The position numbers were made by a program, and so were the translations under genes. A stretch of 64,000 bases of DNA, taken from IMG/VR virus record IMGVR_UViG_3300001242_000012, one strand, 5' to 3'. Under the pieces are notes generated by a model. It made no database searches and had not been told where the DNA came from. It saw nothing but the letters and a program-made list of their open reading frames with translations. Positions 8,993 to 54,835 of this stretch are shown here, piece after piece (position 1 is the stretch's first letter; each line of letters begins with the position of its first letter). This DNA comes from a virus (taxonomy: Duplodnaviria > Heunggongvirae > Uroviricota > Caudoviricetes).

Positions 8993-8996
8993 ATAG

Positions 8997-27715: not shown

Positions 27716-27727
27716 GGTGGGACACCA

Positions 27728-30700: not shown

Positions 30701-33700
30701 GATGTAGTTAAGGTTAACATCCCATTGGTGGATGAAAGAAGGATTCTTACTGTTGGTAGGGTTATGAGAATTAACCAGATGGACTTCACACTTGATGGTA
30801 AGAACATTGGTGTTGAAACAAGCTTCGATAAGATTCTACAATCTCAGGTTGGTATATCTAAACGAGTTAAAGAAGCAATGTTGAAAGGAGACTATGCACA
30901 AGCACAGGCACTTGTCAACTGGGCTCAGAACAAAGTACTTAAAGACTTATCTGGTGCCAATTTCCTTGACTCCGATGAAGTAATGGATACTAGGAAGATA
31001 CGCAACCTAAGTCATGCTAGTATAAGACAGCGTAGTGAAGTAATCTACTTTGAAGGAATAAAAGAATTCCTAGCTGGGAAGGACATCTCAGGTTTGAACT
31101 TAACTGACTCTGTAAACCTGAATAGAACCATTGCAGAGAGATTAAGTGTAAAACTTGGTACTCCTATCGATGTTATAAATGACGTATTAAATCCTCACAC
31201 ACTCAAGGAAGCTCAGTTTACTGGTAAGAATGGAAGAATCAGTCGTAGTGTCAATGACATACGTCAGTTCATTCCATTTGGATACCATTCATCTGCAGCA
31301 ACAATGAGGATGACACAGGCAGAGAATATCCATCCATTCCACCCTAAATCAGCAGAAGCACTTAGAACGAAGTATAGTGAACTAGCTAACCCCCTACTCA
31401 TGACTGAAGCAGGGAAAGCTAGATATGGAGTCACAGGTAATAACTTAGCACCATGGGTTACTGTTAAGACAGCTTACATGGATGATAACCAAGTACAGAA
31501 GATGATTGCTGAGGCTGAGAGGACTGGAGCTCCTTTAACCGGATTAGTAGAATCGACGTATGACGCCAGAGCATTTATGCGTGGCGATATAGCTAATGAT
31601 CTTCTCAAGATGAAGATGGTTAACGAGTATGTAGTTAGTGACATTAATAAGGAGATACTAGCTTCGATAGAGAAGGGCGACCCTTATACTATCGCTCCCT
31701 CTGAAAAGCCATTCACCATTGGTCAATTGGTAGAGTCTAAGATAGTAGATGGCGAAGGTAATACTTTCGGCGTACTTCAGGGAGATGCAAGGTATAATAA
31801 GAAACAGCCTGGTGTAGTAAATGCTATAACGAAACTTGGAGAAAACAAATATAAAGTTTCAGTAGAAAGAACACTACCAGCAGCAAATGGTCTTAAACTT
31901 ATAACCTCTAGCGGTGATAAGATGACTTTGACTCTGGTTGAGAACGATAGATGGAACAGTTTGTTCGGAGCAGAGGCCGATAAGCTTCATCTTGTAATGG
32001 GCTCGCAAGCACTCAAGCACGGCGGACATGGAGACATCATAAGTAGCCAAGTAAGGGCTATGGTTAATGAAGTACAGAATCAGATTACTACAAAGAATCT
32101 AGTAAGAAACAAAGTAGAAGATGATGTAATCAAAGTTCTCAATAACTTCTTCGGCAATAGCGGGTTCAAGTTTGAAGACGTACCAGGAAGCAAGAATAAA
32201 ATGCTTGTGATGATCAATAATCCTAAGAACCAAGTAATAGATCACAAGCTATTCAAGACGCAAGTGCTTGATAAAGTAAGTGACATTATAGGAAGCAACT
32301 TAACGGACAAGTTATTAATTAATGTTGCTGGTGTTGGTAATATAATGACTGGTTATGAGAATGTAGGAGCACAACCTATTGAACCATGGTTCAAAGCAGT
32401 AGGTAGTGAGGGTGGTATATACAAGATAGGACCCAAGGAAATAGGCATGTTTCGACTTAATGGGTTAACTGCAACAGCTAAAGAATACGAGAAGATGGTT
32501 AGAGAACAAGCTGGAGTAGATCTATTAGATGGCGCAGTTGCAGACAAGCTTAGCGAAAATGGACGCATAGAAGCTGGGAAGAAGGAAGTAAAGTCACAGT
32601 TAAGAAAGTATGAAAGGTCAATTAATAGTCTAACTGGAATGATAGACAGTAGAGACACAGTAATACATTCTCAGACTCCTATAGGAGAAACTGGAGAAGG
32701 CAGAGTATCATTATCATCATTTAAAAGATTCCTACGTTCTGGAGATGTCAAGAGTGATATCGACTATACCGGTACGTGGTATGACGACATAGAGAAGATA
32801 GCTAATAACCAAGTACATTCTGGAGAACCTGGAGCTCTTACTCCAAAGAAGGCAGAGAAAATATTGTCCCGTGGTGGAGCGGTATTTGAGTTACCGTTCT
32901 ATGTAACTGCTGGTGATAATATAATCAATAAAGTCTTTCTACCTATAGGACAGCCTAGGAAACTAGGGGTTGCTCAAATGCCACAGGCTAATGAATTATT
33001 AGCAGCAAGTGGTAGAGTGATTAGAACGCTCCAAGACATAGCTACGCTTGACCTAACAGGGAAAGAAGCAAGCACAAGCCTACAAAAGGCAATGGATCAT
33101 TTCACCAACGTAAACATCAGAGGTGTCAGCGATTCTAAAGGTCTTGTTTATAACAGTATAGAATCTGCTAGACTCCAACATAGCGGACAATTCTTAGTTC
33201 AAACATTCTCTCCTGGACAAAAGAAAGCAGCAGCTACTGCTGAAATATCCCTTGGTAGATTAAGAGAAATGACTAAGGGTATGAAGAAAGGTGTTCCTGA
33301 GCTATTAGAAGAATTAGCACTCGGAGACACTAGAGAACTTCAGGAGAAGTATGGAGTTAAAGGTCTGCCTGGTATAGTAGGTCGTTATCCTACAGAAGGC
33401 TTAAGGTCTATAGAACCTACCTGGCTCAGAGTTAACGAGGCATTAGATAGGCTAGCTCCTCATGCAATTCAAGTAACTGTTGGTGATGCCGTAGCTTATG
33501 CAGCAGACAACGATGGTGATTTTATGTCCACTCTGCTTGCACACTTCAAAGGCAAAACCAGATGGCAGATTGAATCTCAACTACGGTCTGGCACAGGTGC
33601 AATAGGTGAAATAGCAGCGCATATAAGAGAGATAGAACCTAGAAGACAGTTCTATGATGAATTAGTATCTAAGCTATATGAAGCAGACAATAGAAAGAGT

Positions 33701-35086
33701 AGCAGTGCATCATACGGAGATTGGGTGAAGGCTTATACGGGTGAAAATATAGATCTACCAAAGGCAGAGCTACAAACCGTAGGAAGCGTCGCAAGAGCCG
33801 AATTAGAAGCAAGACTTGGCCGCTCATATATTGGTTACTCTTCGAACGTAGCTACTTCAATGCGTAAGATGGCAGAGATTGCTATGAGAATAAATCCTCA
33901 GTCGTTTGACTTGAAGAAAGCACAAGCTGTAACAGCCCTCGGTGAATTGGTAACACAGTCTTCTATCTCGTCTAAACACTTCTCGAAATCTGCACTTGAT
34001 GATCATCTAGCAAAAACAATTGATGAATGGGCTGGAATAGATTCTGCAGGACAAGAAGCAGAGAGGAATAAGCTACTTGATAAGAGAATAAGTTCTTCAT
34101 CCGAAATGGTCAATGCAATGATTCGTGGAGATAGAGAAACCTTCATTGAACATGCGAAGATAGTAGGAGCTATGGATGTAGACGCTACAGACATGGAAGA
34201 GTACCGCAGACAAGCCTATAGTGGAGGAATAAAGGGTAGTTCTAAATTTGCAGTTCGTCAGATCGCTACTGTGTATGAAGGGTTTGGCGCTGTCAATGAT
34301 CTAAAGACTGTTATGGGTGGAGATCTAGAAGGGGTAATACACAGCGCAACAAATAGAATGGGCGTAAGTTCAGGGATTAAAAATCTTAACACCCTGGTCG
34401 ATGTGTTAAATGGAAACCTTTCTGGAGAAGCACCAACCTCCTCAGTAACAAACGTATGGAGGATATTGCACGGTGAGCAGAAGGCTGAGGAACTAGAGAG
34501 AAAGGCATTTGAACGTGCTGAACAACGAACCAAGTGGGCATTAGATGAGAGGGCTTCATCTAATATGGTTCTAAATAGTGCCTATGCTGACCAGAGAACT
34601 AGGCCGGACATGGTTACTGTTGGCGAACAAACAATGCGAAATATATTCAGGGATGTTGAACATGTCGCTGGTGGCTCTAAATTAGCTGGTGCAGGATGGG
34701 GAGCTGGAGCATTTGCAGGACTAATGATGGTAGGTAATATGTTTGCAGACCCTCTACCTAAAGACATGATGCCTCAGCCGGACCAAGCTCCACCCATAGA
34801 TGGCGGTGGTTATATACCTACTCCTGATGCTTCTCCTGGAGGACCAGTAGCTAGGATAACACAGAGTGGAGAAGGTTACGAAAACCTACAGGTTATGATT
34901 AGAGCTAGGGATGCTAATGGCTTGTCTAATGAGCAGATCGGACAATTAGTACAAGGACAGATATCATCTGCAATGCCAGTTAATATGAATATGAATATTA
35001 CGTCTAATGATAACACTCAGAGGATAGATAATATGTGGGTGCAAAGCGTTGTAACTAATGCCTTGACCAAGGGCCAAGCATTCTAG
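27728..35086 (+). CDS. Single-chain two-barrel (beta + beta-prime fused) RNA polymerase with N-terminal DEDDh exonuclease; probably virion-packaged
   Basis: Ordered motifs IPFGYH, TAYMD..YD1279, GLK1390-x5-GDK1398, GGIYKIGPKE, R1815LQHSG, GR1886YP, AAD1927NDGD1931FM, LGELVTQSSISSKH2084; Exo motifs D130/E132, D313, H414/D419. Confidence 0.88.
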   Translation: MKFNDSELFSIPSVLEQKGIINSIGTPKVLMNFGGSGRNYYDPNSEPTKEQIIRSKNIPDFIGAPRNIGGVVERSKVSRALNAEINGVLSNPSTSVFNYINTRGATRAQRTITAWENMVKNVGMTHLSLDIENLGVSPLAKNQSMNLFAMTEVGLSSWQFNGLKSGSPMLDKMNTMTLAGFVDEKQKVELKNLIKQVESTGMAGLTDDHRRTLWWLMRYQDSEVFKTETIPGIGDVRLVNKDKLKSPSELPDRSTFTNLKAYTSQMRNGLKNLYGNGNSGSYLDGMIKAINHHVENIAKNGGNLMGYNFLEHDIPAMMEYFNQTRTALGPQSPISSSIETLMKNLHIINSTHRALDVNRLIDLAYHDPIGQIAPLIGDKKMREHYKTLSGGIRGKQGLTTLEVLSNAFNNRIEHFAGGDAEAVPMLLNSIGGNINSKIASARRIAAGASISLDWNAISGGVLAIDNKTIKSDSSLFSISGLSPYEKNKYDGIYKLDDTGKFIDAYSDNPDKPISSGNLYKNTEYRIHSFKQIEKGALEGFEHGGWALTLRNVDEGLYHTFVRPENISGTGFDSIRSIFSHLVPYNAEHITGVSGEETRTERMKDRALRAYYRIFDTDGGHVRAERYMRALDAIDKAGVNRASMDDLTKGQFKDLFNSEQQARNFYYMQDRLRAERGMINAVISSGTFQSLKGVQKDFALTALQDIMEGRVQIPDLRKATGGISPAKKVIKTTTNNRMLQLSDNIVLNLGSYKGIVSQLRQITKRPIDKIELPVLINKLGGKHILDRTEVTNFLRLSEIQKQGPRESNFVLKQIAAKLFDRTRIANDIVSGMKIDDIQAKNLANEFLSYKVAHVDANNGGIWEKLTPDQMRLVANHALDEGQRRGSSAWQKIDKAFVPNLAANQEFAKMLEAHNAIIHEQLSPLKRLGPLFGLNRKAEEPIKKLLSRYLTDANIDGTILSSPDNKGFIFALYDEKKAATVGKQTVEQIMNNSDVVKVNIPLVDERRILTVGRVMRINQMDFTLDGKNIGVETSFDKILQSQVGISKRVKEAMLKGDYAQAQALVNWAQNKVLKDLSGANFLDSDEVMDTRKIRNLSHASIRQRSEVIYFEGIKEFLAGKDISGLNLTDSVNLNRTIAERLSVKLGTPIDVINDVLNPHTLKEAQFTGKNGRISRSVNDIRQFIPFGYHSSAATMRMTQAENIHPFHPKSAEALRTKYSELANPLLMTEAGKARYGVTGNNLAPWVTVKTAYMDDNQVQKMIAEAERTGAPLTGLVESTYDARAFMRGDIANDLLKMKMVNEYVVSDINKEILASIEKGDPYTIAPSEKPFTIGQLVESKIVDGEGNTFGVLQGDARYNKKQPGVVNAITKLGENKYKVSVERTLPAANGLKLITSSGDKMTLTLVENDRWNSLFGAEADKLHLVMGSQALKHGGHGDIISSQVRAMVNEVQNQITTKNLVRNKVEDDVIKVLNNFFGNSGFKFEDVPGSKNKMLVMINNPKNQVIDHKLFKTQVLDKVSDIIGSNLTDKLLINVAGVGNIMTGYENVGAQPIEPWFKAVGSEGGIYKIGPKEIGMFRLNGLTATAKEYEKMVREQAGVDLLDGAVADKLSENGRIEAGKKEVKSQLRKYERSINSLTGMIDSRDTVIHSQTPIGETGEGRVSLSSFKRFLRSGDVKSDIDYTGTWYDDIEKIANNQVHSGEPGALTPKKAEKILSRGGAVFELPFYVTAGDNIINKVFLPIGQPRKLGVAQMPQANELLAASGRVIRTLQDIATLDLTGKEASTSLQKAMDHFTNVNIRGVSDSKGLVYNSIESARLQHSGQFLVQTFSPGQKKAAATAEISLGRLREMTKGMKKGVPELLEELALGDTRELQEKYGVKGLPGIVGRYPTEGLRSIEPTWLRVNEALDRLAPHAIQVTVGDAVAYAADNDGDFMSTLLAHFKGKTRWQIESQLRSGTGAIGEIAAHIREIEPRRQFYDELVSKLYEADNRKSSSASYGDWVKAYTGENIDLPKAELQTVGSVARAELEARLGRSYIGYSSNVATSMRKMAEIAMRINPQSFDLKKAQAVTALGELVTQSSISSKHFSKSALDDHLAKTIDEWAGIDSAGQEAERNKLLDKRISSSSEMVNAMIRGDRETFIEHAKIVGAMDVDATDMEEYRRQAYSGGIKGSSKFAVRQIATVYEGFGAVNDLKTVMGGDLEGVIHSATNRMGVSSGIKNLNTLVDVLNGNLSGEAPTSSVTNVWRILHGEQKAEELERKAFERAEQRTKWALDERASSNMVLNSAYADQRTRPDMVTVGEQTMRNIFRDVEHVAGGSKLAGAGWGAGAFAGLMMVGNMFADPLPKDMMPQPDQAPPIDGGGYIPTPDASPGGPVARITQSGEGYENLQVMIRARDANGLSNEQIGQLVQGQISSAMPVNMNMNITSNDNTQRIDNMWVQSVVTNALTKGQAF

Positions 35087-42370: not shown

Positions 42371-42913
42371 ATGCAAGGACCTAGCAAAAGCTTATATAAG
42401 AGGAAGTTAGACAACATTGATAATGGGCATATAGATGTTAGTGATAGAGATACGATTGAATATTTCCAGAAAGAAGAAGTAGGAATTCATCACTGGGATA
42501 ACAATTCAGTAGTTAGGATATGTGATGACGGCTGCATAGACTCTTTCGTTGGCGAAACCATTGGAATAAGACTAGACCCTACTGCACAGTCTGCTAACAT
42601 CTTCTCCCCTAAGGTAAATGTATTTGGCAATCGAGTTAATCTACTGACTAATCCAGATGGACTTATATGGAACTCATGGAAATTCAATCCCTCAATATAT
42701 GAATGGTGCGGTATTGCTCCTCTTGGAGTTAGTACAAGTCCACGTAATTTTAAGTTAATGTGTGATTATGAAGTAAAAACTGCAAAGGGATGGGAACATG
42801 TTCAAATCCTATTGCCTCCATATCTTAAGGACAATAATCCTGTTAAGTATAGTACAGACATAAAGAATATAATCAGTGGATTAGGATTACCACTACCGGA
42901 TGGTGATGAATAA
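42371..42913 (+). CDS. Putative spike beta-helix/baseplate protein
   Basis: Repeating short beta strands (SVVRICDDGCIDSF, IGIRLD, ANIFS); context. Confidence 0.4.
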   Translation: MQGPSKSLYKRKLDNIDNGHIDVSDRDTIEYFQKEEVGIHHWDNNSVVRICDDGCIDSFVGETIGIRLDPTAQSANIFSPKVNVFGNRVNLLTNPDGLIWNSWKFNPSIYEWCGIAPLGVSTSPRNFKLMCDYEVKTAKGWEHVQILLPPYLKDNNPVKYSTDIKNIISGLGLPLPDGDE

Positions 42914-43491
42914 TGAGAGACTTTGATATACGCGCTGGGAAAGTTATCTGCTCTGAAGATGATACTCATTACGTTCCTATTGACGCCAAAGAAGGGCAAG
43001 CTTGTTTGATAAATGGATGTATCGGCACATTTGTCTCAGTTGAAGGAGATATCATTACTACGCCTTGCCGAGTTGATGATGAGGGGAATAAGATTTATGT
43101 AGATTGTGGTATTGACGATAATGGTAATCAAGTGTTGAAGGAAATGAAGGATATAGCATTAATATCAGACATAAGCTGGTTTAAACAAGTCGTGTACAAC
43201 AGGATAAAGACACAAAATCCAGATTGGTATCACCATCCTACTATCGGAGCTAATCTTGAAGATTTGATTGGCGAACAGAATACAAGGGCTAATGCTGACA
43301 TTGGTTCATACAATATATTAAAGTCACTAACATATGATGGTTTTATTAATCCTAAAGATGCGAATATAAGGTCTGTACCAGTTGATTCTAATAACATAAT
43401 ATATTTCATACGCATATCTAATCCATATACTATTACGTTATATGCTTCGTTTGGATATGAAGATGGGATTAAGGAGTTTGGTGTAGTATGA
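42913..43491 (+). CDS. gp25-like baseplate wedge/sheath initiator with N-terminal insertion
   Basis: KQVVYNRIKT..DWYHHPTIGANLEDLIG; precedes baseplate J. Confidence 0.65.
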   Translation: MRDFDIRAGKVICSEDDTHYVPIDAKEGQACLINGCIGTFVSVEGDIITTPCRVDDEGNKIYVDCGIDDNGNQVLKEMKDIALISDISWFKQVVYNRIKTQNPDWYHHPTIGANLEDLIGEQNTRANADIGSYNILKSLTYDGFINPKDANIRSVPVDSNNIIYFIRISNPYTITLYASFGYEDGIKEFGVV

Positions 43492-44294
43492 TAGTGTACT
43501 CTAATAAGAAAGTAAGAATGCAAAGAATGATGGATGCTTTAGCTAACAATACTGATATAACAGACTTTTCTCCTGGAACAATAGCAAGAACCTTTCTTGA
43601 CATAATAAATGAAGAGCTAGAAGAATGTTATACCACTCTTGACAGATACATATCTATGGCATACATAAGCACGGCATCTGGTAAGTTTTTAGACTTGATG
43701 GGGGCTATGTTAAACTGTCCACGCAAGAGTGGAGATACAGATGACAATTATAGATACTTGATTAGTCAACAAGTGTATTCTTCAGCAGGAGCTAACGAGA
43801 CTACTATTAGACTAAAAAGTCTATCAGTAGCAGATGTCAAAGACGTAGTATTAGTTCCTTACACATATGGGATAGGAAGTTTTTCTGTATATGTAATGGT
43901 AGACGATCCTAATACCTCTGATACTATTATAAACTCAGTACAAGCAGTGTTAGACAGAGAGAAAGCATACGGTATAAAAGCAGTTGCTATGAAACCGAAT
44001 ATCACGACTGTTGATGTTAGTGTGAAATTAGTTATGCATCCAAGTGTAAGCTCCGTGGAGGCAAGTAGTCTATCTTATTCTGCACGTTCAGCAATCAAGT
44101 ATTATATAGATAATATATCCATGGGAGAAGCATTATCTATCAATGTAATTATGAGTAAGGCACTTAGTGTGAGTGACAAAATCATAAATGGAGAAGTTTT
44201 AGAATTTAAGATAAATAATAAGAAAACATATCTTGCAACTTACTATTCAATGTGGGATGAAAAGATAACTCCAGGAAATGTTATTATCAAGTAG
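43488..44294 (+). CDS. Baseplate J-like protein
   Basis: ITDFSPGTIART, ASGKFLDLMG, RKSGDTDDNYR, GSFSVYV. Confidence 0.8.
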   Translation: MIVYSNKKVRMQRMMDALANNTDITDFSPGTIARTFLDIINEELEECYTTLDRYISMAYISTASGKFLDLMGAMLNCPRKSGDTDDNYRYLISQQVYSSAGANETTIRLKSLSVADVKDVVLVPYTYGIGSFSVYVMVDDPNTSDTIINSVQAVLDREKAYGIKAVAMKPNITTVDVSVKLVMHPSVSSVEASSLSYSARSAIKYYIDNISMGEALSINVIMSKALSVSDKIINGEVLEFKINNKKTYLATYYSMWDEKITPGNVIIK

Positions 44295-44305
44295 GAGGGT
44301 TTCTG

Positions 44306-45949
44306 ATGTCATATAACGATAGTTTTCCTTTAAGTAATGTAACGAAGAAGATGCTCAGATATCTTCCTAGCTGGATGACAATGAGAACCAATGAGAATTC
44401 ATTAGGTACACAATTCATTAACTCACCTGGATTAGAGTTTGAGCAAGTAGAAGAATATATACTCGATATGATTAATAGTCAATATCTAGATACTGCTGAT
44501 ATAAGCAAGATAGACTATGTATGGAAAACAGATCTATATCCTATCTTGCTTGATGGTTGGAAGAAGTTATCTTTCAGAGCTAAATATAAAGATAATGACA
44601 CTAACATATACGAACCATTTGATGTAAAAGAAGTGACGAGCTATGAAGACTTCTATCTTGGTAATACTGATTTCTGTATGGTTGATTATGATACAGGCAT
44701 ATGTTACATCCGTAGACCAAGTGATTGTTCAATAGAATTTGAATATTTACACGTTGATGCATATGATGGAGAAGATGATGATGGAGGATTATACATTAGC
44801 GAATTTGCAATCCATCATATCTGGAACTCTTTTGATGAAATTGGATTATTATTAGGTACTCCAAGATTATTTAAAGAAGATAATCAAAGATATAGAGACA
44901 GGTTAAAGAACGTATTCTTATTACGTGGTGGTCCTACTTTAGTAGGACTAAAGAATGGTATTACTGGACTCTTGGGTACTAGCGATGTTGAGATAAAGGA
45001 ATTATGTGATATAGCATTTCGTGACTCACTACTTAACGAGGACGGTAGTGCTAGTGACAAGCTTAAGAAATATGCAAGAATAATAAATGATCAGATTGCT
45101 AATACATGGGATAACATGAGTTGGGATAAAGCATATTGGAGGTCTCTTGAGCATACAAAGTTAGGATTTGATTACTTACCACATGTTTGGAATGCTTCTA
45201 CTGAAGGATGGGTGGATGAAGACTTCCAGAGTGGAGTAGGTTGTGGCCTTGACTTATACGTCAATTCGCCTAAGAATGAAAGTAGTGAACAAGAATTTGA
45301 ATACTACGTTCAAGCACAAGCTGCTATTGATAGCAGTGAAGTGAGGTATCCAGAGCACACTTTCAGCTATAGGATATTGGCAAAGGGAACCAAGATAGAG
45401 AACACCCCCAATGTCGAGGAGTTCAAGTACACCATAGTGGCCGCAGAGAACATAGATCTACAGGATAACATAGTTATCAATGGGAAACGTGAGTATAATC
45501 AATGGCCCATCATATCCTGGGACACAGTAGAAAGTATGTCTACAACCCTTGAGGTAGTTAATAGTAATAAAATAATGAGTCCAAGTGTTGATGGAATAAC
45601 TCCTAGACCATATCTTAAAGTTATAGTAACAATGGAAAATGATACTAACGACACTCCATTACTGAATTCTATTACTGTTGGCTGGAAAGACACATCTGAT
45701 ATTGAACACACTACTACTCTTAATTCAGGATTATTATTCGAGAGAACAGATGACCTTTCAAATGACTCTGGTCCTTTTCCATTGATACATATCACTAAAG
45801 AAAACACTGAAGTTGTTAACAATCATGTAGAGCTTAGTTATGGAGACTTTCAACAAATCATTGACAATGATAGTGACTGGAGAAATGGCGAAATGAACAA
45901 CTGTGTAGTGAGCGGTAATAGTTTAAAACTCAACGTAGGAGTGATATAA
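44306..45949 (+). CDS. Baseplate wedge-like structural protein
   Basis: LPSWM, HHIWNSFDEIGLLLGTPRL..EDNQRYRDRL, GGPTLVGLKNGI. Confidence 0.6.
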   Translation: MSYNDSFPLSNVTKKMLRYLPSWMTMRTNENSLGTQFINSPGLEFEQVEEYILDMINSQYLDTADISKIDYVWKTDLYPILLDGWKKLSFRAKYKDNDTNIYEPFDVKEVTSYEDFYLGNTDFCMVDYDTGICYIRRPSDCSIEFEYLHVDAYDGEDDDGGLYISEFAIHHIWNSFDEIGLLLGTPRLFKEDNQRYRDRLKNVFLLRGGPTLVGLKNGITGLLGTSDVEIKELCDIAFRDSLLNEDGSASDKLKKYARIINDQIANTWDNMSWDKAYWRSLEHTKLGFDYLPHVWNASTEGWVDEDFQSGVGCGLDLYVNSPKNESSEQEFEYYVQAQAAIDSSEVRYPEHTFSYRILAKGTKIENTPNVEEFKYTIVAAENIDLQDNIVINGKREYNQWPIISWDTVESMSTTLEVVNSNKIMSPSVDGITPRPYLKVIVTMENDTNDTPLLNSITVGWKDTSDIEHTTTLNSGLLFERTDDLSNDSGPFPLIHITKENTEVVNNHVELSYGDFQQIIDNDSDWRNGEMNNCVVSGNSLKLNVGVI

Positions 45950-45950
45950 G

Positions 45951-47036
45951 ATGGCAAATACTTTATATTCTGACTTAACTAAGACACAATATCCAGCACA
46001 AATAGATTCAAGATACCCTGTCGCTGCTGTTACAGACTTGCGTTTTCCTTCTGCTGACAATGCTAACTTAGTATATACTATTGGAGAACAACATGAAAAT
46101 ACAGATATGAATCCTGAAACAGATTATACCACCTATATAATGGCTGCACATATAAATGTTTTACAGGAAGCTATGTTATGTGTTGAAAGAACGTTAGGTA
46201 TAATGCCGCAAGGTGACTTTAAAACAGTAAAGGCTCGTATAGAAAACTTAGAGGATAAGGACTATGACATTAGGTATATTACAGCTAATAGTGTGGGATG
46301 GACGTATGATTCTGCTAGAGATACATTGTATGCCCATAAGCATCTTGGTGGAACTGCTTCACCATCTAAAGTTGATTTAGCAAGTGAAGTACAGGGACTA
46401 TTACCAAAAACAGCTATAGAACTTGGCGTTACCAATAGTTCTTTAATGGCTACTGACATAAAAATGTCTAGTACAGACAATAGAACGATTAAAGATTCTA
46501 TTGATGCACAATTCCCACGTACAGCAGGAACAAGTTATCCGATAACTGGTGACTTATATCTTGATAATAAGTTCTTTGGTGGGTTATATGGAGAATGGGA
46601 TGCACAAGACCATATCGAAGGGATAAGTTCTACCAAAGTTAGTGATGATAAAGCATACTCTGGATACTCTGTTAAGAGTGGTACTACAAATGAATTTATG
46701 ATAATTGGACCTACTGGTGGATATCAGAAATTACGATATGGTAAATTTGTAGTAGGATTTAGAATAAAAATAACTGATCCTCCAGATGCAGAAGCAATGG
46801 TATGCCAGTTATCAGTTGGAAACGTTTTAGAACAAAACGTTAGAAATATATATGCTAAAGACTTTGAGAACCCTGGTAATTATGAAATGTTATATATAAC
46901 ATTTGATCACACACCAACATCAGATAACCTTAATAGATTCTATTTCGGTGTATGGCGTCATAACGCAGCAGTGGGTTATCTATATATAGATAGTATAATT
47001 ATAATGCCTTCTCATACTTCAGTATATGATGACTAG
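45951..47036 (+). CDS. Short tail fibre/receptor-binding protein with anchor module and CBM-like C-terminus
   Basis: HINVLQ..ERTLG.PQG anchor shared with the 58796 ORF; HKHLG motif; jelly-roll-like C-terminus. Confidence 0.6.
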   Translation: MANTLYSDLTKTQYPAQIDSRYPVAAVTDLRFPSADNANLVYTIGEQHENTDMNPETDYTTYIMAAHINVLQEAMLCVERTLGIMPQGDFKTVKARIENLEDKDYDIRYITANSVGWTYDSARDTLYAHKHLGGTASPSKVDLASEVQGLLPKTAIELGVTNSSLMATDIKMSSTDNRTIKDSIDAQFPRTAGTSYPITGDLYLDNKFFGGLYGEWDAQDHIEGISSTKVSDDKAYSGYSVKSGTTNEFMIIGPTGGYQKLRYGKFVVGFRIKITDPPDAEAMVCQLSVGNVLEQNVRNIYAKDFENPGNYEMLYITFDHTPTSDNLNRFYFGVWRHNAAVGYLYIDSIIIMPSHTSVYDD

Positions 47037-47048
47037 GAGGGTTAAATA

Positions 47049-49154
47049 ATGGCTTATTTCGGAGTTTCTGATTTCAGAATAAATGCTGACATCACGAACT
47101 TAACAGTTGATGCTGTTTCAGCCAAGCTGAGTAGGCATTCTACAGAATGGTACGAACAATGGGATTGCAGTTCGTTTGGTGAGTGGCTTACACATGGAGG
47201 CTACTATAATTGGGATATAAGTAATGATTCATTCCTTATTAATTCTGCGCCATACTATTCTACCGATAACTTTGTCTATAGAACTTTAAATATACCAGCA
47301 GGTGGCAAACTTATATTCAAATATAAAACTCAACGCCAAACACTAGATGGATATATGTATGTCAAAGGCGCAGGAAACAATATTTTATACACTGGTTCTT
47401 CATCTGATTGGAAAGAAGAGACTGTAACATTAAATGACGGTATAACTAATGATTATATATTTATAGGCTACTTTAAATATAACAATTATGGAAAAACTGA
47501 TTACGCATGGATAGATCATATCAGGTGGGGTCCATTTTATAGAGAAGGATATTACACTAATGGAACATATACATCGAATACGTATACCTCTATGAATTCT
47601 AGTAATGTAAGAATTAGCTGGTTAGCATATATTCCAACAGGCACTACTTGTACAATAGAAGCTAGAACGAGTAGAAATAATTCTTGGAGTGACTGGGTCA
47701 GTATACCTTACACAGGATATATCCATAGTCCAGATAACAATTTTGATCGTATTCAGGTAAGAGCTACTTTAACAACTATTGATGATAGTATAACTCCAAT
47801 ACTATCATCAATAAATATTATAACTCATGACGAACCTGTGATAACTACCCCTACAAGACGACGTGGTACAATTAGGTCTTCAGAAATAACTGAACTTCGT
47901 GATGCAATAAACAACATGCTTCCTAAATACGGATTACCTGTTATAACAACATCTATAACAGGTAATCAAGTTAATAACATCAGGGATACTGATTTTATAG
48001 AGATAGCATCAGCTATTAAAAGTATTTCTATAAATGAAGACAACACAACCTGGAATTCCTCTTACATTAAACAAGGTGGAACTACTGTTATAAACGTTGA
48101 TCATCTTATTGAATTACAAGAGAAACTTGTTAGTATCGTTGATATAGCTCCTGTAGCTCCATCGATGAGGCAACTACCGTACTTTACTTATCTATCTCTT
48201 AACCCTCCAGGCTCTATTAGTTCTAGCTCCTCTTCTCAATCAGACAATACAATAGATGTTAGCTGGATAGCAGCAACATCTACTAATCCTAATCTTGAAT
48301 ATAGCTGGTATCCAAGCTATTCAAAAGATGTTGCTGCTTATGAGGTATGGTATTCAAATGGAACTGACTACTGGTTGTATACTATTATTAGCAATACAGG
48401 AAAAGCCTATTATGAGATATCTCATGAGTGGGATGTAACATGGAATGGATATGTCAATATATGTACTATAGATAAGTTCGGAAATAAGACGGACTCTATG
48501 TATCCTTTATCTCCACAAGCCAGTAATCTTCTTGACCACTACGAGTTAAATTATAAACTTAATAATAAAGTAGTATGGAATGGACTCGGTGGATCTCCTG
48601 TTATCGAAACTAAAGCTATTACATGGTATTTGGGCTCTCAATGTTACTACTATTATGATAGCAATCGTTGGTTCTATGAAAACCCTGTAACATTCGATAT
48701 GCTTTCTGGAGTCACCAATATATCATGTGGATTCTACGTGTCTTCTGGAACTCTTGGTCTCGAATGGATGATAGTGTATTATAACGAAGAGACAAATAAT
48801 TGGTTACCAACTAGTACTTATATAACTGCATCCCAATACGATACTACTTATTCTTTTAATACCACAATAACTAGTAGTGTGGTAGCCAAATTTATTGTCG
48901 TACCAAGATACTGGCAAAGTAGTGGAACTTGGGGTATGGCTATAAATAATTTGTCTATCACTAGAGAATATAATAATGGTAGTATGAGTAAAGCAACGTC
49001 TTATACTCATACTATTAACGAGCTAGGTTACTATCAGTATCGTATTCGCTCAGTAGATGGAAATGAAGTAGCTAGTGATTGGGTGCAAACTTCAGCCAAC
49101 ACATATTATTGTGGATGCTATGGACATTGTGGAAATCACTCTTATAGCGAATAG
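47049..49154 (+). CDS. Tail-associated protein with FN3-like domains and Cys/His-rich C-terminus
   Basis: Beta-rich, Tyr/Trp/Ser-rich; three I...E(L/I)..AI-like repeats; ends YYCGCYGHCGNHSYSE. Confidence 0.6.
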   Translation: MAYFGVSDFRINADITNLTVDAVSAKLSRHSTEWYEQWDCSSFGEWLTHGGYYNWDISNDSFLINSAPYYSTDNFVYRTLNIPAGGKLIFKYKTQRQTLDGYMYVKGAGNNILYTGSSSDWKEETVTLNDGITNDYIFIGYFKYNNYGKTDYAWIDHIRWGPFYREGYYTNGTYTSNTYTSMNSSNVRISWLAYIPTGTTCTIEARTSRNNSWSDWVSIPYTGYIHSPDNNFDRIQVRATLTTIDDSITPILSSINIITHDEPVITTPTRRRGTIRSSEITELRDAINNMLPKYGLPVITTSITGNQVNNIRDTDFIEIASAIKSISINEDNTTWNSSYIKQGGTTVINVDHLIELQEKLVSIVDIAPVAPSMRQLPYFTYLSLNPPGSISSSSSSQSDNTIDVSWIAATSTNPNLEYSWYPSYSKDVAAYEVWYSNGTDYWLYTIISNTGKAYYEISHEWDVTWNGYVNICTIDKFGNKTDSMYPLSPQASNLLDHYELNYKLNNKVVWNGLGGSPVIETKAITWYLGSQCYYYYDSNRWFYENPVTFDMLSGVTNISCGFYVSSGTLGLEWMIVYYNEETNNWLPTSTYITASQYDTTYSFNTTITSSVVAKFIVVPRYWQSSGTWGMAINNLSITREYNNGSMSKATSYTHTINELGYYQYRIRSVDGNEVASDWVQTSANTYYCGCYGHCGNHSYSE

Positions 49155-49166
49155 GGAGGAATCATT

Positions 49167-50450
49167 GTGTTATCTAATACAAAGATAGATTGTATATATT
49201 TAATGCTTACAGAGAATTGCAATCTGCGTTGTGTTTATTGCTATGAGCAGAGTAAGGCTAGCAGTGTTATGACCTTAAACTTAGCTAAGTCTTCTGTAGA
49301 TATGCTATTTACTTCTGGTAGCAATAAACTGCTAGTGGAACTATTTGGTGGGGAACCACTACTAAACTTTGATGTTATCAAACATATTATCCCATATATA
49401 AGATCTAAGGAAGAAGAAACTGGGAAGCAATGTAAAATTGGTATGTCTACTAACCTAACATTATTAACAGACGATATGATAGATGTAATAGAAGAAATAG
49501 ACGATATCCAATTTAGTATCGACGGTATTGCTAAGGTGCAGAATAAGAACAGACCAATGGCTAACGGTAAAGATTCATTTGATATGGTCGATGTCAACCT
49601 ACCAAAGGTTGCTCGACCATCAATTAACTATTCTGTTCGCATAACGATACAACCAGATAACGTTAAGTACTTAGCTGAAAGTGTCATATTTTATCATAAT
49701 AAGTATGGTATTAATAACATTAAGACACAATGCGTACAAGAAACTACCTGGTCAGAGAAGGAAGTTAAGGAATATCAAAGACAGTTGAGGATGATAAGTG
49801 ACTATATGTATGGGCTTCATAGGTCTGGGAAGTCTTTTACTTTCGATCCACTTAGTCATTATCTTGGTTTACCACCTTACATCAACCCAGATAAGACATG
49901 TGGAGCTGGACATAAATCAATTGGGATAACTCCTAATGGAGACATATATCCATGCCTTAGGTTCTATACTTACGACAGAAACAGAGGAACAGAAGACTAT
50001 AAAATGGGTAGCATTCATACGGGTATTAACTTAGACAAATCTAGTATATTCCGTAGTTATAATAGAAGTAGTTTAGAGAAGTGTTATGAGTGTGAACACG
50101 ATTCATATTGTGATAGGTGTTTAGCCTGTAATCTTGAGGTGTGCGGAGACATGTTTGTAAGTCCTTCAGAACATTGTAAAACCGTAAAGGTTGATAGTAT
50201 AATTGGTAAACAACTTCGAGATAGACTGAACATAGACAATTTACAACAAGAGAAGCTTTCAACTTTAATTGATGGAATGAATAATAAGCTCTCCAGTATA
50301 ATAAGCAGACAAAAGAATACAGAGGATTTATTTAATAGCATAACCCCATCGGTAGATAGTTTGATGGAAAGGTTAATAAACTTAGAAAATACTAATAACA
50401 ACCTACGTCTTGAAGTCGCTGATTTAAAATTAGAACTAAGAAGGAGATAA
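49167..50450 (+). CDS. Radical SAM/SPASM-domain enzyme with C-terminal coiled coil
   Basis: CNLRCVYC (C18/C22/C25), FGGEPLLN, IQFSIDG, CGAG..GITPNGDIYPC, CYECEHDSYCDRCLAC..C SPASM cysteines. Confidence 0.92.
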   Translation: MLSNTKIDCIYLMLTENCNLRCVYCYEQSKASSVMTLNLAKSSVDMLFTSGSNKLLVELFGGEPLLNFDVIKHIIPYIRSKEEETGKQCKIGMSTNLTLLTDDMIDVIEEIDDIQFSIDGIAKVQNKNRPMANGKDSFDMVDVNLPKVARPSINYSVRITIQPDNVKYLAESVIFYHNKYGINNIKTQCVQETTWSEKEVKEYQRQLRMISDYMYGLHRSGKSFTFDPLSHYLGLPPYINPDKTCGAGHKSIGITPNGDIYPCLRFYTYDRNRGTEDYKMGSIHTGINLDKSSIFRSYNRSSLEKCYECEHDSYCDRCLACNLEVCGDMFVSPSEHCKTVKVDSIIGKQLRDRLNIDNLQQEKLSTLIDGMNNKLSSIISRQKNTEDLFNSITPSVDSLMERLINLENTNNNLRLEVADLKLELRRR

Positions 50451-50455
50451 GTTAG

Positions 50456-53400
50456 ATGGCACAATATGGCAAGAATATATACGGAACTTCATATTTCGGA
50501 GTCACCTCTGCTTACTCTGGTCAATACATAACTAATATATTCAATACTGGTAATGTATTAAATGGGTCTGTTAATATAGTTCTAAATACTATATTACCAA
50601 CTGCTACTTATCTCTACAATAGTAGCAACATAATATATAGTGACAATTGGGTTGGTGGTTCGACCAGCGTCCTTAACGCAAAAGCCACTCTAAGTGTTGC
50701 AGCTAGAAATATAATTTTAAATTATAATACTGCATCTGGCACCGCTCAAGTTACTGTCAAGAAGCTAGTTAATGGTTCTGTTGTTAATACTGATGTTGTA
50801 ACTGTGCCTATGACAACTGGAGCCTCGTATGATTTATCATCATATACAAGTTCTTATGCTCAATACGAAGTTGAAATAACGAACACGGATACGAACTCTA
50901 TAAACATAAGTAACTTCGTTTGTGTTGTTACAGATATATCTGTCGAAACTAGTGCAGCTTACGATGACGAAAGCACTCTATATATAGATGAATCCGTATG
51001 GTCAAATTGGGAACTATGTACGCCAGTATACACACATGTTACCGGCAACCAATGGACAGTATCTGCTACATCGTCATCATATTCAAGTAAGAATAGAATA
51101 AAGGCTAAGATACATTTAGCTAGTTCTGATAATCTTCTTACTCCTGAAGTATCTAGGTTCGAACTTAATTCGGGCAACGTTGCTAATCATACGAATACTG
51201 GTAAGTACTTTGCTACGTTTAGATTCGGTCCATCATTTAAAGAATATACAGATATAATTTACACTACTACTACTCCTAGTAGTACTAGGATATATGTTCA
51301 AACTCAATCTTCAAATAATGGTAGTGTTTGGACAATCCTAAGTGCACCATATACGCAAGATGACACTAATCAGATAAGATTAAAGGAAGGAAGCTCGTAT
51401 GGAGAAGTAGTATCTAATGCTATCACTCCTGAAAATCTCACAGTATGGGAAAAGTATCGGACTATAGATTGGAGCGGAACTGTCAATAATGATATTCACG
51501 GTAATATTACAGAGAATATGAAAGTCAGATATCAAATACTAGCTAGTATCGATGGGCAGTGGGTTGATTATTACAGTGGACTTCCATATCAAGGAGCAAG
51601 TAATTGGGCTGATATTACTCAAATGGCTAGCAATCCTATAACAGTACCGATTAAGATTAAGGCTATATTGTCTAGAAGCTCATCCTCATATCCAACACCA
51701 TACGTAAGTGAATTTGAATTACGCTGTAAGTCAACTTATGAAGAGAATGTGATAATACCTGGTGATACATCTTCTGTGGATTCAAATAATACTGGCGATA
51801 AAGAATTAGTTAATTTGGTTGATATATTGGTACTTGCTAGTTCAGACAACCAGCCACATCACGATGGTAAACTCACAATACCTCAAGGGTTAGAACAAGA
51901 GTGTGTGGCTGGAAGAAGTTTGTATCCTGCGTACACGCACATAAATAGGACAGGATTACCTTATGTAACCCTTTATTGGAATAGCAAAGGATATGGATCT
52001 GGCGAATCAACTACACTAAGTCAAACGGATTCCTTGAGGATATACTGTTCTGAAACAAGCAACTCGCAGAATAAGAGATTTTATCAATACGGAGCAGCGT
52101 CAGTAGTATATCCACTTACCAGTGAGATACCAATGTATACTTACTTTATCTGCCCAGGTAACTCTAATGTGATAATGAATGGAAATAAGTTGTATAAGTA
52201 CTTTTTAGAAATGGGATGGGACAGTCCAGGCTATCCTATAGAAGGAAATGTGAATGAAGATGATAGAGTAATAGATATATTTTGGAATAGTTTAAGTACT
52301 GACACACCAAGCGGTAATCCATCTACGTGGAATATGGTTTCAAGTCTTGAAGGAGACAATATCTGTGCGAAGATATACGCTCCAACAGCAGCTGCTCCTA
52401 CCCCATGGGTATCTGAGTCTAAAATAATACAAGGAGCATTTGTCAATGCCAATTCTATAAAGAACAACTATGTCTTGAATGGTATAATTCTACCTGAACT
52501 AGACCCAGAAGCTATATTATCAAATCAACCATATGTGTTGGAAATAGTAGAAGGTAGTGTCAGGTGCAATAACTTTACCATTTCTGATGACATAGTCAAT
52601 GGTGACTCACCAAGACTACCACATACTCTGACAATTGTAAAATTTGATAACACATTAGAGATAATGCATCTTATGACTAGAGGTTCTGGAGACACCGATG
52701 TTCTTCCGAATAACTTTATTACCAGTATAGACGGAGTATATGATTCGCCCTATGTATCAGATCCGTTATTCGTAGACTATATAAAGGATATCGATTATAC
52801 TCAGAACGGAAATTACATCGATTGGTCGTTAAATGAAAGGAAACCAGCAGCCGAAGCAAAGTATTATATCTCATATAAGTATACAGATTATAGGTATGCT
52901 AACGTAGTATTCTCTTGCGATTACACAGAACCTATAATACAGAACGATATATGGGTTAGTAATGTAGTAACTTGTAGCGGTAAGAAGGTATCTTCTGGCA
53001 ACGACATGATAGAAGCTATACCTGATATTGAAATTCCAGACAATATAAATACAGACACCTTAGTATATATAGTAGACAGTAACAACATTTGGGTTAAGAC
53101 ATACATTAAAGATGGCAATGTAGTTGGTACGCTCAACAACCTAAACCCTAAGGACAATTGGTTACCTCAGGTACATAATGGGTTCTATTATATTAACAAG
53201 CAAAGATACTTTATGTATGCAGAACCAGAAATAATTATTATTGGTGATGAACATATGCCTTTGTCTAGCGATATTAGTTATGTGGATGGAAGATATGAGA
53301 AGGGTGCTAATACCGACCATGAAAATGCTATCATAACTTATCCCATGCATTACAATTATTCTAATCCTGGTGGAATATCATTATGGTTTAAGTCTAATAC

Positions 53401-54835
53401 AACAATGGATGGGGCTATGACATCCAGTCCTGTATTCTTTGAAGTATGGGAAGACGCGAGTAATTATATTGTTCTTAAATATGAGAATGGATCAATAAAG
53501 TTTGTTTCTATGAATGACTCATTATTACAGGATATCTCCTATACTTTCTCAGATTCACTGAGTGCGTGGAACCATTTAGCTGTGACATGGAATAATTTAA
53601 CTGGTAATGTCAACATGTATGTTAACGATATTCATAGCAGTAGCCCCATGTCTATATCGTTATTTGATGGTAGGAACAGCGATGGCACACATAAGACGAA
53701 ATCATTATGTATTGGAAATTCTAGAAACTCACTCGGAGATAACTGTAACTGTATCCTAGATGACTTAGTAATGTTTAAGTACGCTCCCTCCACAGAGACC
53801 ATCAGTAGTATATACACCTCTACTACATTAGACTTTGATTCCAATCTTATGACTATGAAATGTGGATTTGAGGGGAACATAAATGAAACCTTCGATGGGT
53901 CATTCGTAGCTATTAATCCAGCTCCTCAACAAAGAGCACCCTTAGTGATACAGAAACAAGATGGTACTCCACTACGCAAGGTATCTTTTTCTGATGAAAC
54001 AACTGGTGAATATACAACATATAATACAGAGGAATTCATCAGTGATGGAACCAATAAGATTATTTTAACTTTTTCTGATCTAGAGGTTGACAAGTTTAGA
54101 ACAGTAGTGTATAATGATAAGAACAGTATAATAGGAGATCCCTTGTCCATAAATGGTAGTGAAGTAACAATGACATTAACTTCCGATGAGGCTGAAGCAT
54201 TAAAAGGAAAGAGGTTAAAGGTTATATACCAGTTGAGAGACTGTTATATATGGGATTCTAACGGAAAATATGGAGCCGCATATATTCGCCTAGGTCAGAA
54301 TACAGGCGAACCACTCACTATAACTTACGAGAAAAACTCTCTCAATTACTCTCTAGCGAACACAGCAGAGCTAAACCCACTCTATAATCCTAATCATAAT
54401 GGATTCATGTATATAACAAATGACTTAAGCGAATTAAGTCATTTCAGAGTAAATCTAAGCCCAAGTAATCTATTGTGTAATGGAGTAGATATGTCTACTA
54501 TCATAATAGAAACAGTTGATAAACACGGTAATCCTACTAATAATGTAGACTTAGAGCTGTCTATGAATAAGATAGCACTTGTATCTGGTAATCGGATCAC
54601 TGGAGGACTTATTAAATACATTGTTGGAGATACCGTTGAGCTAAAGAACACAGGCTCATCTTATTCAACCAATAGTGTAGCTGGTAGGCATATCTACATG
54701 TATACAGCGCCTAAGATAAGTCATGAAGAACTTCCAGACGCAACGTATAACAAGATAACAATATACGATTCTATTAGTGGTCTTGGAACAGAAATCAAAA
54801 TAAGGTTAATGACTATTAATGAATATGGAATGTGA
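50456..54835 (+). CDS. Large tail/baseplate structural protein with LamG-like and Ig-like domains
   Basis: N-terminal YG..YG..YFG; GGISLWFK..WNHLAVTW..LDDLVMF (LamG-like); LSPSNL..STIIIETVDKHGNP (Big_1-like). Confidence 0.65.
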   Translation: MAQYGKNIYGTSYFGVTSAYSGQYITNIFNTGNVLNGSVNIVLNTILPTATYLYNSSNIIYSDNWVGGSTSVLNAKATLSVAARNIILNYNTASGTAQVTVKKLVNGSVVNTDVVTVPMTTGASYDLSSYTSSYAQYEVEITNTDTNSINISNFVCVVTDISVETSAAYDDESTLYIDESVWSNWELCTPVYTHVTGNQWTVSATSSSYSSKNRIKAKIHLASSDNLLTPEVSRFELNSGNVANHTNTGKYFATFRFGPSFKEYTDIIYTTTTPSSTRIYVQTQSSNNGSVWTILSAPYTQDDTNQIRLKEGSSYGEVVSNAITPENLTVWEKYRTIDWSGTVNNDIHGNITENMKVRYQILASIDGQWVDYYSGLPYQGASNWADITQMASNPITVPIKIKAILSRSSSSYPTPYVSEFELRCKSTYEENVIIPGDTSSVDSNNTGDKELVNLVDILVLASSDNQPHHDGKLTIPQGLEQECVAGRSLYPAYTHINRTGLPYVTLYWNSKGYGSGESTTLSQTDSLRIYCSETSNSQNKRFYQYGAASVVYPLTSEIPMYTYFICPGNSNVIMNGNKLYKYFLEMGWDSPGYPIEGNVNEDDRVIDIFWNSLSTDTPSGNPSTWNMVSSLEGDNICAKIYAPTAAAPTPWVSESKIIQGAFVNANSIKNNYVLNGIILPELDPEAILSNQPYVLEIVEGSVRCNNFTISDDIVNGDSPRLPHTLTIVKFDNTLEIMHLMTRGSGDTDVLPNNFITSIDGVYDSPYVSDPLFVDYIKDIDYTQNGNYIDWSLNERKPAAEAKYYISYKYTDYRYANVVFSCDYTEPIIQNDIWVSNVVTCSGKKVSSGNDMIEAIPDIEIPDNINTDTLVYIVDSNNIWVKTYIKDGNVVGTLNNLNPKDNWLPQVHNGFYYINKQRYFMYAEPEIIIIGDEHMPLSSDISYVDGRYEKGANTDHENAIITYPMHYNYSNPGGISLWFKSNTTMDGAMTSSPVFFEVWEDASNYIVLKYENGSIKFVSMNDSLLQDISYTFSDSLSAWNHLAVTWNNLTGNVNMYVNDIHSSSPMSISLFDGRNSDGTHKTKSLCIGNSRNSLGDNCNCILDDLVMFKYAPSTETISSIYTSTTLDFDSNLMTMKCGFEGNINETFDGSFVAINPAPQQRAPLVIQKQDGTPLRKVSFSDETTGEYTTYNTEEFISDGTNKIILTFSDLEVDKFRTVVYNDKNSIIGDPLSINGSEVTMTLTSDEAEALKGKRLKVIYQLRDCYIWDSNGKYGAAYIRLGQNTGEPLTITYEKNSLNYSLANTAELNPLYNPNHNGFMYITNDLSELSHFRVNLSPSNLLCNGVDMSTIIIETVDKHGNPTNNVDLELSMNKIALVSGNRITGGLIKYIVGDTVELKNTGSSYSTNSVAGRHIYMYTAPKISHEELPDATYNKITIYDSISGLGTEIKIRLMTINEYGM

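Follow-up and report, generated by a model that had tools for sequence, protein, structure and literature searches.

Why would a tailed phage carry a radical S-adenosylmethionine (SAM) enzyme among the genes of its baseplate and tail fibres? The question is raised by a 64,000-nt stretch of phage DNA (hereafter the window), which is the minus strand of part of an IMG/VR phage record of 244 kb. There, the gene of a 427-residue radical SAM/SPASM enzyme directly follows that of a 701-residue protein with three closely spaced cysteines at its C-terminus. With slightly better than even confidence, we favour a reading in which both genes make up an accessory cassette in a conserved myophage baseplate/tail-fibre module, the enzyme being dedicated to modifying the three-cysteine tail of its neighbour, probably via thioethers. 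The original prediction for this locus had proposed a modification of this kind, similar to that of RiPPs (peptides made on the ribosome, then modified post-translationally).

The gene of the 701-residue protein, the candidate substrate within the baseplate/tail-fibre module, occupies positions 47049..49154 of the plus strand, and translation of this open reading frame (ORF) gave the length and the terminal residues initially reported. Its TAG stop codon (49152-49154) is followed by a spacer of 12 nt (49155..49166, plus strand) carrying a GGAGG ribosome-binding site (49155-49159), from which 7 nt separate the GTG start codon of the enzyme gene (49167..50450, plus strand). The next ATG is found at 50456, after a gap of 5 nt. 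Both flanking gaps, 12 and 5 bp, are therefore as the original prediction had them. The short gap with its ribosome-binding site suggests tight co-expression or translational coupling of the two genes. No separate precursor peptide had been noticed between them, and this held over a wider region, since a six-frame scan of 42-58 kb gave no other cysteine cluster in a credible ORF; a hidden small precursor was rejected on this basis. The two ORFs lie in one reading frame, separated by TAG and four codons in the window, and by TAG TAG and three codons in a related locus (L007:6437-9586). A fusion of substrate and enzyme by TAG readthrough or recoding was considered and rejected, because 11 of the 35 genes in the window normally end at TAG and no suppressor tRNA is encoded in the genome.

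The 701-residue protein has cysteines at positions 40, 201, 472, 532, 560, 688, 690, and 694. The last three belong to a tail of 20 residues (682-701; 49092..49151, plus strand), the candidate modification site, which reads SANT followed by the last 16 residues, YYCGCYGHCGNHSYSE. It aligns with the C-terminus of P0122, a protein of 624 residues and 28% identity, which was the one full-length homologue retrieved by a HMMER search of 1.84 billion representatives. The same search returned a few proteins sharing a beta-domain of about 100 residues (residues 160-260 of the 701-residue protein). Within columns S682-C694, 9 of the 13 positions are identical in P0122 (69%, as compared to 28% overall), namely S682, A683, N684, Y686, C688, C690, Y691, G692, and C694; the aligned tail of P0122 reads ...SANLYTCSCYGYCDFSIY. 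The shared motif is S-A-N-x-Y-x-C-x-C-Y-G-x-C, and in the window protein it is followed by seven free residues ending in Glu. The extreme ends of the two proteins are ...ESANLYTCSCYGYCDFSIY in P0122 and ...TSANTYYCGCYGHCGNHSYSE in the window; in both, 5-7 residues separate the last cysteine from the C-terminus, and a carboxylate follows that cysteine, provided by E701 in the window, by D620 in P0122, and in either protein by the free C-terminus as well. The original prediction spoke of a Cys/His cluster. Its cysteine part stands, as it is kept in P0122, whereas its histidine part does not: H693 is replaced by Tyr and H697 has no counterpart. The element should accordingly be called a cysteine motif. 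Among 175 loci compared, the pattern C-x-C-[YFWH]-G-x-C was found in real ORFs of the window and of the P0122 locus only.

The remainder of the 701-residue protein is predicted from its sequence to be beta-rich and multi-domain, with features resembling FN3 domains. No family was matched in Pfam, NCBIfam, or PHROG, and neither a tblastn search of GenBank phages with the protein nor a blastn search of them for close relatives returned a match. The ESM Atlas gave weak similarities to fn3/MAM/adhesin-like clusters, with scores below 0.9, to be taken as leads only. The middle part (residues ~158-517) is kept in relatives, while the C-terminal part varies among them; thus P0137 is a partial homologue, over residues 161-514. 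In Bacillus phage KLEB27-3, for which no paper was found, the equivalent slot is filled by gp044 (733 residues), annotated as 'structural protein, FN3 domain-containing', which has marginal similarity to the 701-residue protein (E 0.005). From the position of its gene, we infer that the 701-residue protein is a baseplate-distal or fibre protein.

If the enzyme serves the tail, the two should travel together. P0122 is encoded on a 9.9-kb contig, L007, where the order is a gp25-like gene, a J-like gene, genes of 566, 365, and 624 residues, a radical SAM enzyme of 419 residues, and the start of a DUF4815 gene. The gap between the 624-residue gene and the enzyme gene is 15 nt (TAG TAG A GGAGG AAGAAT ATG). 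The L007 enzyme is 36% identical to that of the window along its whole length, C-terminal helix included (aligned through residue 406), the two pair in a maximum-likelihood tree (Shimodaira-Hasegawa-like approximate likelihood ratio test, SH-aLRT, 95), and the L007 enzyme scores 202 bits for NF047865. A second contig, L091, is about as close by its baseplate genes, which are 48-58% identical to those of the window. Its same slot is occupied by a 734-residue protein homologous to the 701-residue protein only over residues 161-514 (E 4e-16), with a different C-terminal part of about 200 residues ending ...RPYRFLCG and no cysteine motif. In the 21 kb examined of the 62.5 kb of this contig, no radical SAM gene was found; instead, the DUF4815 gene directly follows that of the 734-residue protein, after a 12-nt gap. 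The DUF4815 protein, 43% identical over its full length to its window orthologue, is conserved there in a region lacking the enzyme, and is therefore unlikely to be an obligate substrate. Neither the cysteine motif nor a radical SAM gene occurs in the regions examined of L092, a more distant relative, or of phage KLEB27-3. In the relatives seen, the C-terminal module with the cysteine motif and the enzyme are thus present or absent together, and the flanking genes do without the enzyme. The neighbourhood analysis called for by the original prediction therefore came out in its favour for the orthologous loci. IMG/VR scans for close relatives, with the radical SAM enzyme alone and with the 361-residue neighbour, gave no match; a metagenome scan with the 361-residue neighbour gave none either, and one with the pair of radical SAM enzymes returned only relatives of at most 30% identity, save for one partial match of 35%.

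What kind of enzyme is encoded next to this tail? Its assignment as a complete radical SAM/SPASM protein is borne out. Pfam recognises Radical_SAM (PF04055; 46.8 bits for a cut-off of 29.5), Fer4_12 (35.6 bits), and SPASM (PF13186), the latter just over its cut-off (21.9 versus 21.5 bits). The CX3CX2C motif (C18-N-L-R-C22-V-Y-C25; 49218..49241, plus strand) of the SAM-cleaving [4Fe-4S] cluster and a GGEP sequence (residues 61-64), containing the GGE SAM-binding motif of the superfamily, are invariant in 28 aligned homologues. The SPASM domain covers residues 245-337 (49899..50177, plus strand). The SPASM signature is CX9-15GX4C ... CX2CX5CX3C ... C, corresponding to two auxiliary [4Fe-4S] clusters; the enzyme shows it as C245-X12-G258-X4-C263, C306-X2-C309-X5-C315-X2-C318, and C337, with an X2 instead of an X3 spacing in the fourth element, likewise in L007. 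All seven cysteines are invariant in the 28 homologues, which include SCIFF-type and TIGR04115-type enzymes, and they would bind the two auxiliary clusters. Seven ligands for two such clusters, three plus four, with one iron of auxiliary cluster I left open, have been reported for CrpC and CteB (PMC13692751).

By its scores, which stay below all family cut-offs, the enzyme is closest to thioether-forming maturases of peptides and proteins. In NCBIfam, the highest score is that of the PapB family (NF047865), 216 bits (215.8) for a cut-off of 340, followed by SCIFF maturases (TIGR03974; 160 bits, cut-off 425), CXXX-repeat maturases (TIGR04115; 155 bits, precisely 154.9, cut-off 350), ScfB-related (152), nif11-type (150), and QhpD (135) enzymes. 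Much lower values are obtained for anSME (TIGR03942; 67 bits, cut-off 349), the mycofactocin maturase (62), YhhB (62), and DynA (62.5), while TIGR04119 gives 83 bits. Among solved structures, CteB is the nearest by sequence (phmmer E 1.5e-37). It also ranks first in a Foldseek search with an AlphaFold2 model of the enzyme (28 homologues; predicted local distance difference test, pLDDT, 89.4; predicted template modelling score, pTM, 0.82), with a template modelling (TM) score of 0.72, anSME being second. An identity as anSME or as a mycofactocin, PQQ-type, or cyclophane enzyme was rejected on these much lower scores. The grouping with anSME or cofactor-synthesis families, named beforehand as an outcome that would speak against the idea, is therefore not what is observed. 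Two further radical-SAM-domain ORFs of about 205 residues, not of the SPASM type, lie outside the window in the same phage genome (G000:C1:45943-46287 and G000:C1:87064-87396).

The two ends of the enzyme deserve attention. At the N-terminus, no RiPP recognition element (RRE) is present, in agreement with the original prediction: the alignment with CteB begins at CteB residue 97, after its RRE, and the first barrel strand of the model is formed by residues 9-13. At the C-terminus, residues 334-426 (50166..50444, plus strand) are predicted to form one uninterrupted helix of 93 residues, shared by phage homologues and absent from the cellular homologues of SCIFF type. In keeping with this, homologues of about 450 residues on ~257-kb jumbo-phage contigs cover 96% of the enzyme, as compared with 77-79% for SCIFF-type proteins of 457 residues. 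We infer from the model that this helix may be a docking or oligomerisation element taking the place of the RRE. A complex of the full enzyme with residues 636-701 of its neighbour, three 4Fe-4S clusters, and SAM was predicted with a score of 0.02, which speaks neither for nor against binding.

In which respects does the pair resemble known systems? CteB, the maturase of the SCIFF ranthipeptide CteA of Clostridium thermocellum (PDB 5WGG, 5WHY), shares about 28% identity, the radical SAM core, and a SPASM domain with seven auxiliary-cluster cysteines. It forms thioethers from cysteines, and the phage enzyme may do the same. In CteB, however, about 95 N-terminal residues form an RRE to which the leader of a precursor of about 45 residues binds, whereas the phage enzyme begins with the barrel, has the 93-residue C-terminal helix instead, and is encoded next to a 701-residue protein. 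SCIFF systems are recognised by TIGR03974, an RRE, and a precursor with six cysteines in 45 residues; here the 160 bits cover profile positions 93-436 only and there is no small precursor ORF. PapB, the maturase of PapA in freyrasin biosynthesis, represents the best-scoring curated family. It links cysteine to the carbon beside a carboxylate located C-terminal to this cysteine, can use the C-terminal residue of the peptide itself, and recognises its substrate through binding of the leader by an RRE (PMC12373016). The carboxylates that follow the last cysteine in both phage tails resemble this geometry, which is a lead, not a test. PapB substrates, on the other hand, have CX3D/E repeats and are recognised through their leader, whereas the phage tail (CGCYGHCGNHSYSE) contains no CX3D/E, the enzyme has no RRE and scores below the family cut-off, and its candidate substrate is a large structural-type protein.

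Thioethers are also installed in proteins by radical SAM/SPASM enzymes, as reported for QhpD/QhpC and, since 2026, for CrpC/CrpA, where the modified cysteines of CrpA are C-terminal (PMC13692751). These two cases provide a precedent for thioethers on a protein instead of a short peptide. They differ from the phage pair in their RRE and N-terminal recognition sequence, and they come from cells, the modified proteins being a subunit of an amine dehydrogenase and a Cys-rich protein of a methanogen; neither is viral or belongs to a virion module. Closer in setting is the CXXX-repeat system (TIGR04115 maturase, TIGR04119 domain), known from computer prediction only, in which an RRE-less radical SAM/SPASM enzyme stands beside a Cys-rich protein in phage tail-fibre modules. 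True members nevertheless score 308-425 bits (L027, 308; L022, 425), while the window enzyme falls below the cut-off. Their targets carry ladders of 20-80 cysteines, one in every three or four residues, and are often accompanied by a helper protein, as opposed to three terminal cysteines and no helper in the window, where one C-x3-C unit (C690-YGH-C694) plus C688 makes no repeat array. Neither does the tail contain the C/S-X-P/A-X-R sequence of anSME substrates, the enzyme scoring 67 bits for that family, nor does the locus have the layout of a classical RiPP: the candidate substrate has 701 residues, the enzyme has no RRE, and the cassette includes neither protease nor exporter. Judged from its genes, the locus differs from the known enzyme-substrate systems in being viral, in lacking leader and RRE, and in its minimal site at the C-terminus of a large protein of the tail module. 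Literature searches found no paper on radical SAM modification of phage structural proteins or on thioether-modified tail or virion proteins, and none on the CXXX-repeat radical SAM family or its presence in phages.

The association is better appreciated within the wider family of viral radical SAM enzymes. An IMG/VR profile scan gave 80 loci with homologues of the enzyme; many are near-duplicates, so that these are not 80 independent observations. A Cys-dense neighbour was defined as a protein of at least 100 residues encoded on the same strand within 3 kb, with at least 5 Cys per 20 residues. Such a neighbour is present in 76 of the 80 loci, as against 0 of 173 among ORFs farther away, and its median length is 268 residues (up to 1109). 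Linkage of homologues to large Cys-tailed or Cys-rich proteins, the absence of which would have spoken against the original prediction, is thus observed in these loci. The types of neighbour vary. True TIGR04115 enzymes (L022, 425 bits) stand beside CXXX ladders with G/S/T residues, whereas in the closest phage clades the neighbours have C-terminal CQxx ladders (L002) or CxC-xx-R repeats (L013), the PapB-like enzymes beside the latter scoring below every cut-off. In L002, from ~257-kb jumbo phages, five radical SAM genes are interleaved with Cys-ladder proteins, and a 572-residue protein with a Cys ladder at its extreme C-terminus comes right after the closest homologue of the window enzyme, of 450 residues. 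With its three-cysteine motif and no helper, the window arrangement is, as far as sequences tell, a rare minimal variant of this phage association.

Some of these loci have features of their own. In L002:7500-19000 (ENA ERZ28634742 scaffold_10), the five radical-SAM-like genes lie within 12 kb of a tail-fibre-like region, with the same layout in L003 and L004; the interleaved proteins have 392-572 residues, two of them with CQxx Cys ladders, and the product of 8737-10059, in which CX3CX2C is lost (TNIECDYL), may be a pseudo-enzyme or a helper. In L013:6276-7061 (IMGVR_UViG_3300023713_000001), a 261-residue protein directly after the radical SAM gene has about ten C-x-C-[VN]-x-R repeats (e.g., CSCVSRAATRDCDCNGRCSCNV), a class of Cys motif distinct from CXXX ladders, and two more radical-SAM-like genes follow. 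On a bacterial contig (L005; ENA ERZ27241893), the best cellular homologue of the enzyme, a radical SAM protein of 714 residues, is encoded beside three ABC-transporter genes and a 44-residue peptide ending CLGCSGCSGCDGCSGCKSSKSK (10478-10612); the layout is that of a classical RiPP, with C-x-G-C repeats in the core.

How might the cassette operate? It would consist of two genes inserted in the conserved baseplate/tail-fibre module and expressed from one transcript. In the host cytoplasm, the SAM cluster of the enzyme would strip one hydrogen atom off a residue within or beside the tail. In CteB, auxiliary cluster I has an open site at which the substrate cysteine binds; a cysteine sulfur of the phage tail held in the same manner would then be joined to the carbon so activated. 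One to three thioether bridges, sactionine or ranthionine, could be the product, leaving a baseplate-distal or fibre protein whose C-terminal tip is a small covalent knot. By family resemblance, a thioether is the most likely product. With no RRE in the enzyme and no leader in the candidate substrate, recognition must come from elsewhere; the free C-terminal tail, the folded domain preceding it, or the 93-residue C-terminal helix of the enzyme are candidates. Unlike a disulfide or a zinc site, a thioether knot resists reduction and chelation, and it is tempting to speculate that it would suit an exposed tip of the particle. The tail as substrate, the thioether chemistry, the presence of the protein in the virion, and the purpose of the knot are thus deductions. 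In its strongest form, the proposal would be that redox-proof thioether bridges are installed in the C-terminal tip of a baseplate/tail-fibre protein by a leader-independent, RRE-less radical SAM/SPASM enzyme; this enzyme would recognise a large protein in its folded state, perhaps by means of the long C-terminal helix, and might cross-link subunits of the fibre. We rate this version as tentative, with a little less than an even chance.

Several observations weigh against modification of the tail by its neighbour. Three cysteines within 7 residues are expected by chance about 0.3 times in the 20.7k residues of the window; the cluster owes its weight to its position, its conservation in a homologue of 28% identity, and its linkage to the enzyme, not to composition alone. 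This linkage was sampled, for the exact motif, in two loci having both features and two to three having neither, and since L091 was seen over 21 of its 62.5 kb, a radical SAM gene may exist elsewhere on that contig. The enzyme misses every curated NCBIfam cut-off, so its chemistry cannot be transferred with confidence, and the tail is neither of the PapB type (CX3D/E) nor a CXXX ladder. The place of the 701-residue protein in the virion is deduced from gene order and the annotations of distant relatives, and an AlphaFold2 prediction from a two-sequence alignment gave an unusable model (pLDDT 35.8).

These points leave room for other explanations. In a multimeric fibre tip, the tail could serve as a structural Zn or Fe site or form a disulfide knot, and the enzyme would have its target elsewhere, be it a different virion protein, a protein of the host, or a small molecule. 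Cys/His metal sites occur at phage fibre tips, two histidines lie near the cysteines of the window tail, and the cysteine cluster by itself is within chance expectation. However, the histidines are not conserved in P0122, motif and enzyme are co-present or co-absent in the relatives seen, the upstream and downstream genes are conserved in L091 without a radical SAM gene in the region examined and hence do not need the enzyme, and the relatives of the enzyme are peptide or protein maturases with Cys-rich neighbours. All considered, a metal site or disulfide knot appears unlikely. Alternatively, the tail would be the substrate but the chemistry another one: an aromatic C-C cyclophane on Tyr (Y686, Y691-G-x), a cysteine oxidation of the formylglycine type, or an epimerisation. 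The conserved block does contain invariant Tyr and Gly residues (Y686, Y691, G692); SPASM enzymes include formers of cyclophane, C-C, and C-O links; YhhB, DynA, and anSME are matched weakly, anSME being the second-best structural match; and no family cut-off is reached. Against this, thioether formers score 2-3.5 times higher (216, 160, 155, and 135 bits), CteB clearly ranks first in both sequence and fold, and dense cysteines, not aromatic motifs, are the one feature common to the neighbours of all related phage radical SAM enzymes, which makes such a chemistry rather unlikely.

Mere coincidence must also be weighed. The enzyme gene could be a mobile accessory gene that happened to land here, next to a cysteine motif due to chance or otherwise unrelated; orthologous loci are indeed very few, and variation is concentrated in this slot. 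Yet the motif is 69% identical in proteins that share 28% overall, the genes keep their order and close spacing while the enzymes have diverged to 36% identity, and Cys-rich neighbours are nearly universal in viral contigs of this enzyme clade, so that fortuitous linkage seems quite improbable. Finally, the 701-residue protein might be a giant leader or scaffold, of which the modified C-terminal ~14-20 residues would be cleaved off as a free RiPP, a signal or an antibacterial peptide released at lysis. Large protein-like RiPP leaders are known (cited in PMC13692751), and the closest cellular homologues of the enzyme act on small Cys-repeat peptides, as exemplified by the 44-residue peptide of L005, with its CLGCSGCSGCDGCSGC core beside the 714-residue radical SAM enzyme and ABC exporters. 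But the cassette has no protease or exporter gene and is located inside a conserved baseplate/fibre module, and the motif directly follows a conserved folded-domain signature with no evident cleavage motif. Release of a free peptide is, in our opinion, very improbable.

Should modification of the tail by the neighbouring enzyme be correct, its consequences would reach beyond this phage. To our knowledge, the known covalent reinforcements of phage particles, such as the isopeptide bonds of the HK97 capsid, are autocatalytic. Action of a dedicated radical enzyme on a protein of the tail module would represent a new class of virion maturation, and would take RiPP-type chemistry beyond peptides, to a protein of 700 residues recognised without leader and RRE. 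No thioether placed by an enzyme in a virion protein was found in the literature, so that this one would be the first reported, and the three cysteines would offer a minimal model for the larger Cys-ladder cassettes common in uncultured phages. With one motif, one enzyme, and no helper, the locus is the simplest test case for a widespread and unstudied association of phage radical SAM enzymes with Cys-rich tail-module proteins, and natural relatives that lack both motif and enzyme in the regions seen add to its value. It may also be imagined that leader-independent stapling of the free C-terminus of a folded protein could serve protein engineering, as PapB already does for peptides.

The genomic setting remains to be described. 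The large genes of the window all lie on one strand, in the order terminase, tail sheath, three giant proteins, and the baseplate/fibre block. The baseplate genes upstream of the cassette (42913..47036, plus strand), for which PHROG gave baseplate/wedge matches, are 43-58% identical to their counterparts in L007 and L091. They comprise a gp25-like gene (42913-43491), a Baseplate_J/wedge-like gene (43488-44294), the gene of a 547-residue baseplate structural protein (44306-45949), and that of the 361-residue protein (45951-47036). Downstream of the cassette, on the same strand, a structural protein of 1459 residues (50456..54835) is identified by Pfam and PHROG as containing DUF4815. The 547-residue protein is homologous to ORF162 ('virion structural protein') of Bacillus phage 0305phi8-36, and has further homologues among the structural proteins of jumbo phages of Bacillus and Moorella. 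The homology of this baseplate module to those of Bacillus jumbo phages 0305phi8-36, Edson, vB_BceM_WH1, and KLEB27-3 and of Moorella phage MTATph1 suggests a Bacillota host. Further upstream (21740-35086), giant proteins of 1991 and 2452 residues contain no cysteine in their 4443 residues, for a window average of 0.77%. Outside the window, at the end of a cluster of 13 tRNAs, a tRNA-like gene (G000:C1:72712-72784) is called by ARAGORN as 'tRNA-??? (ac)', with an abnormal two-base anticodon loop call.

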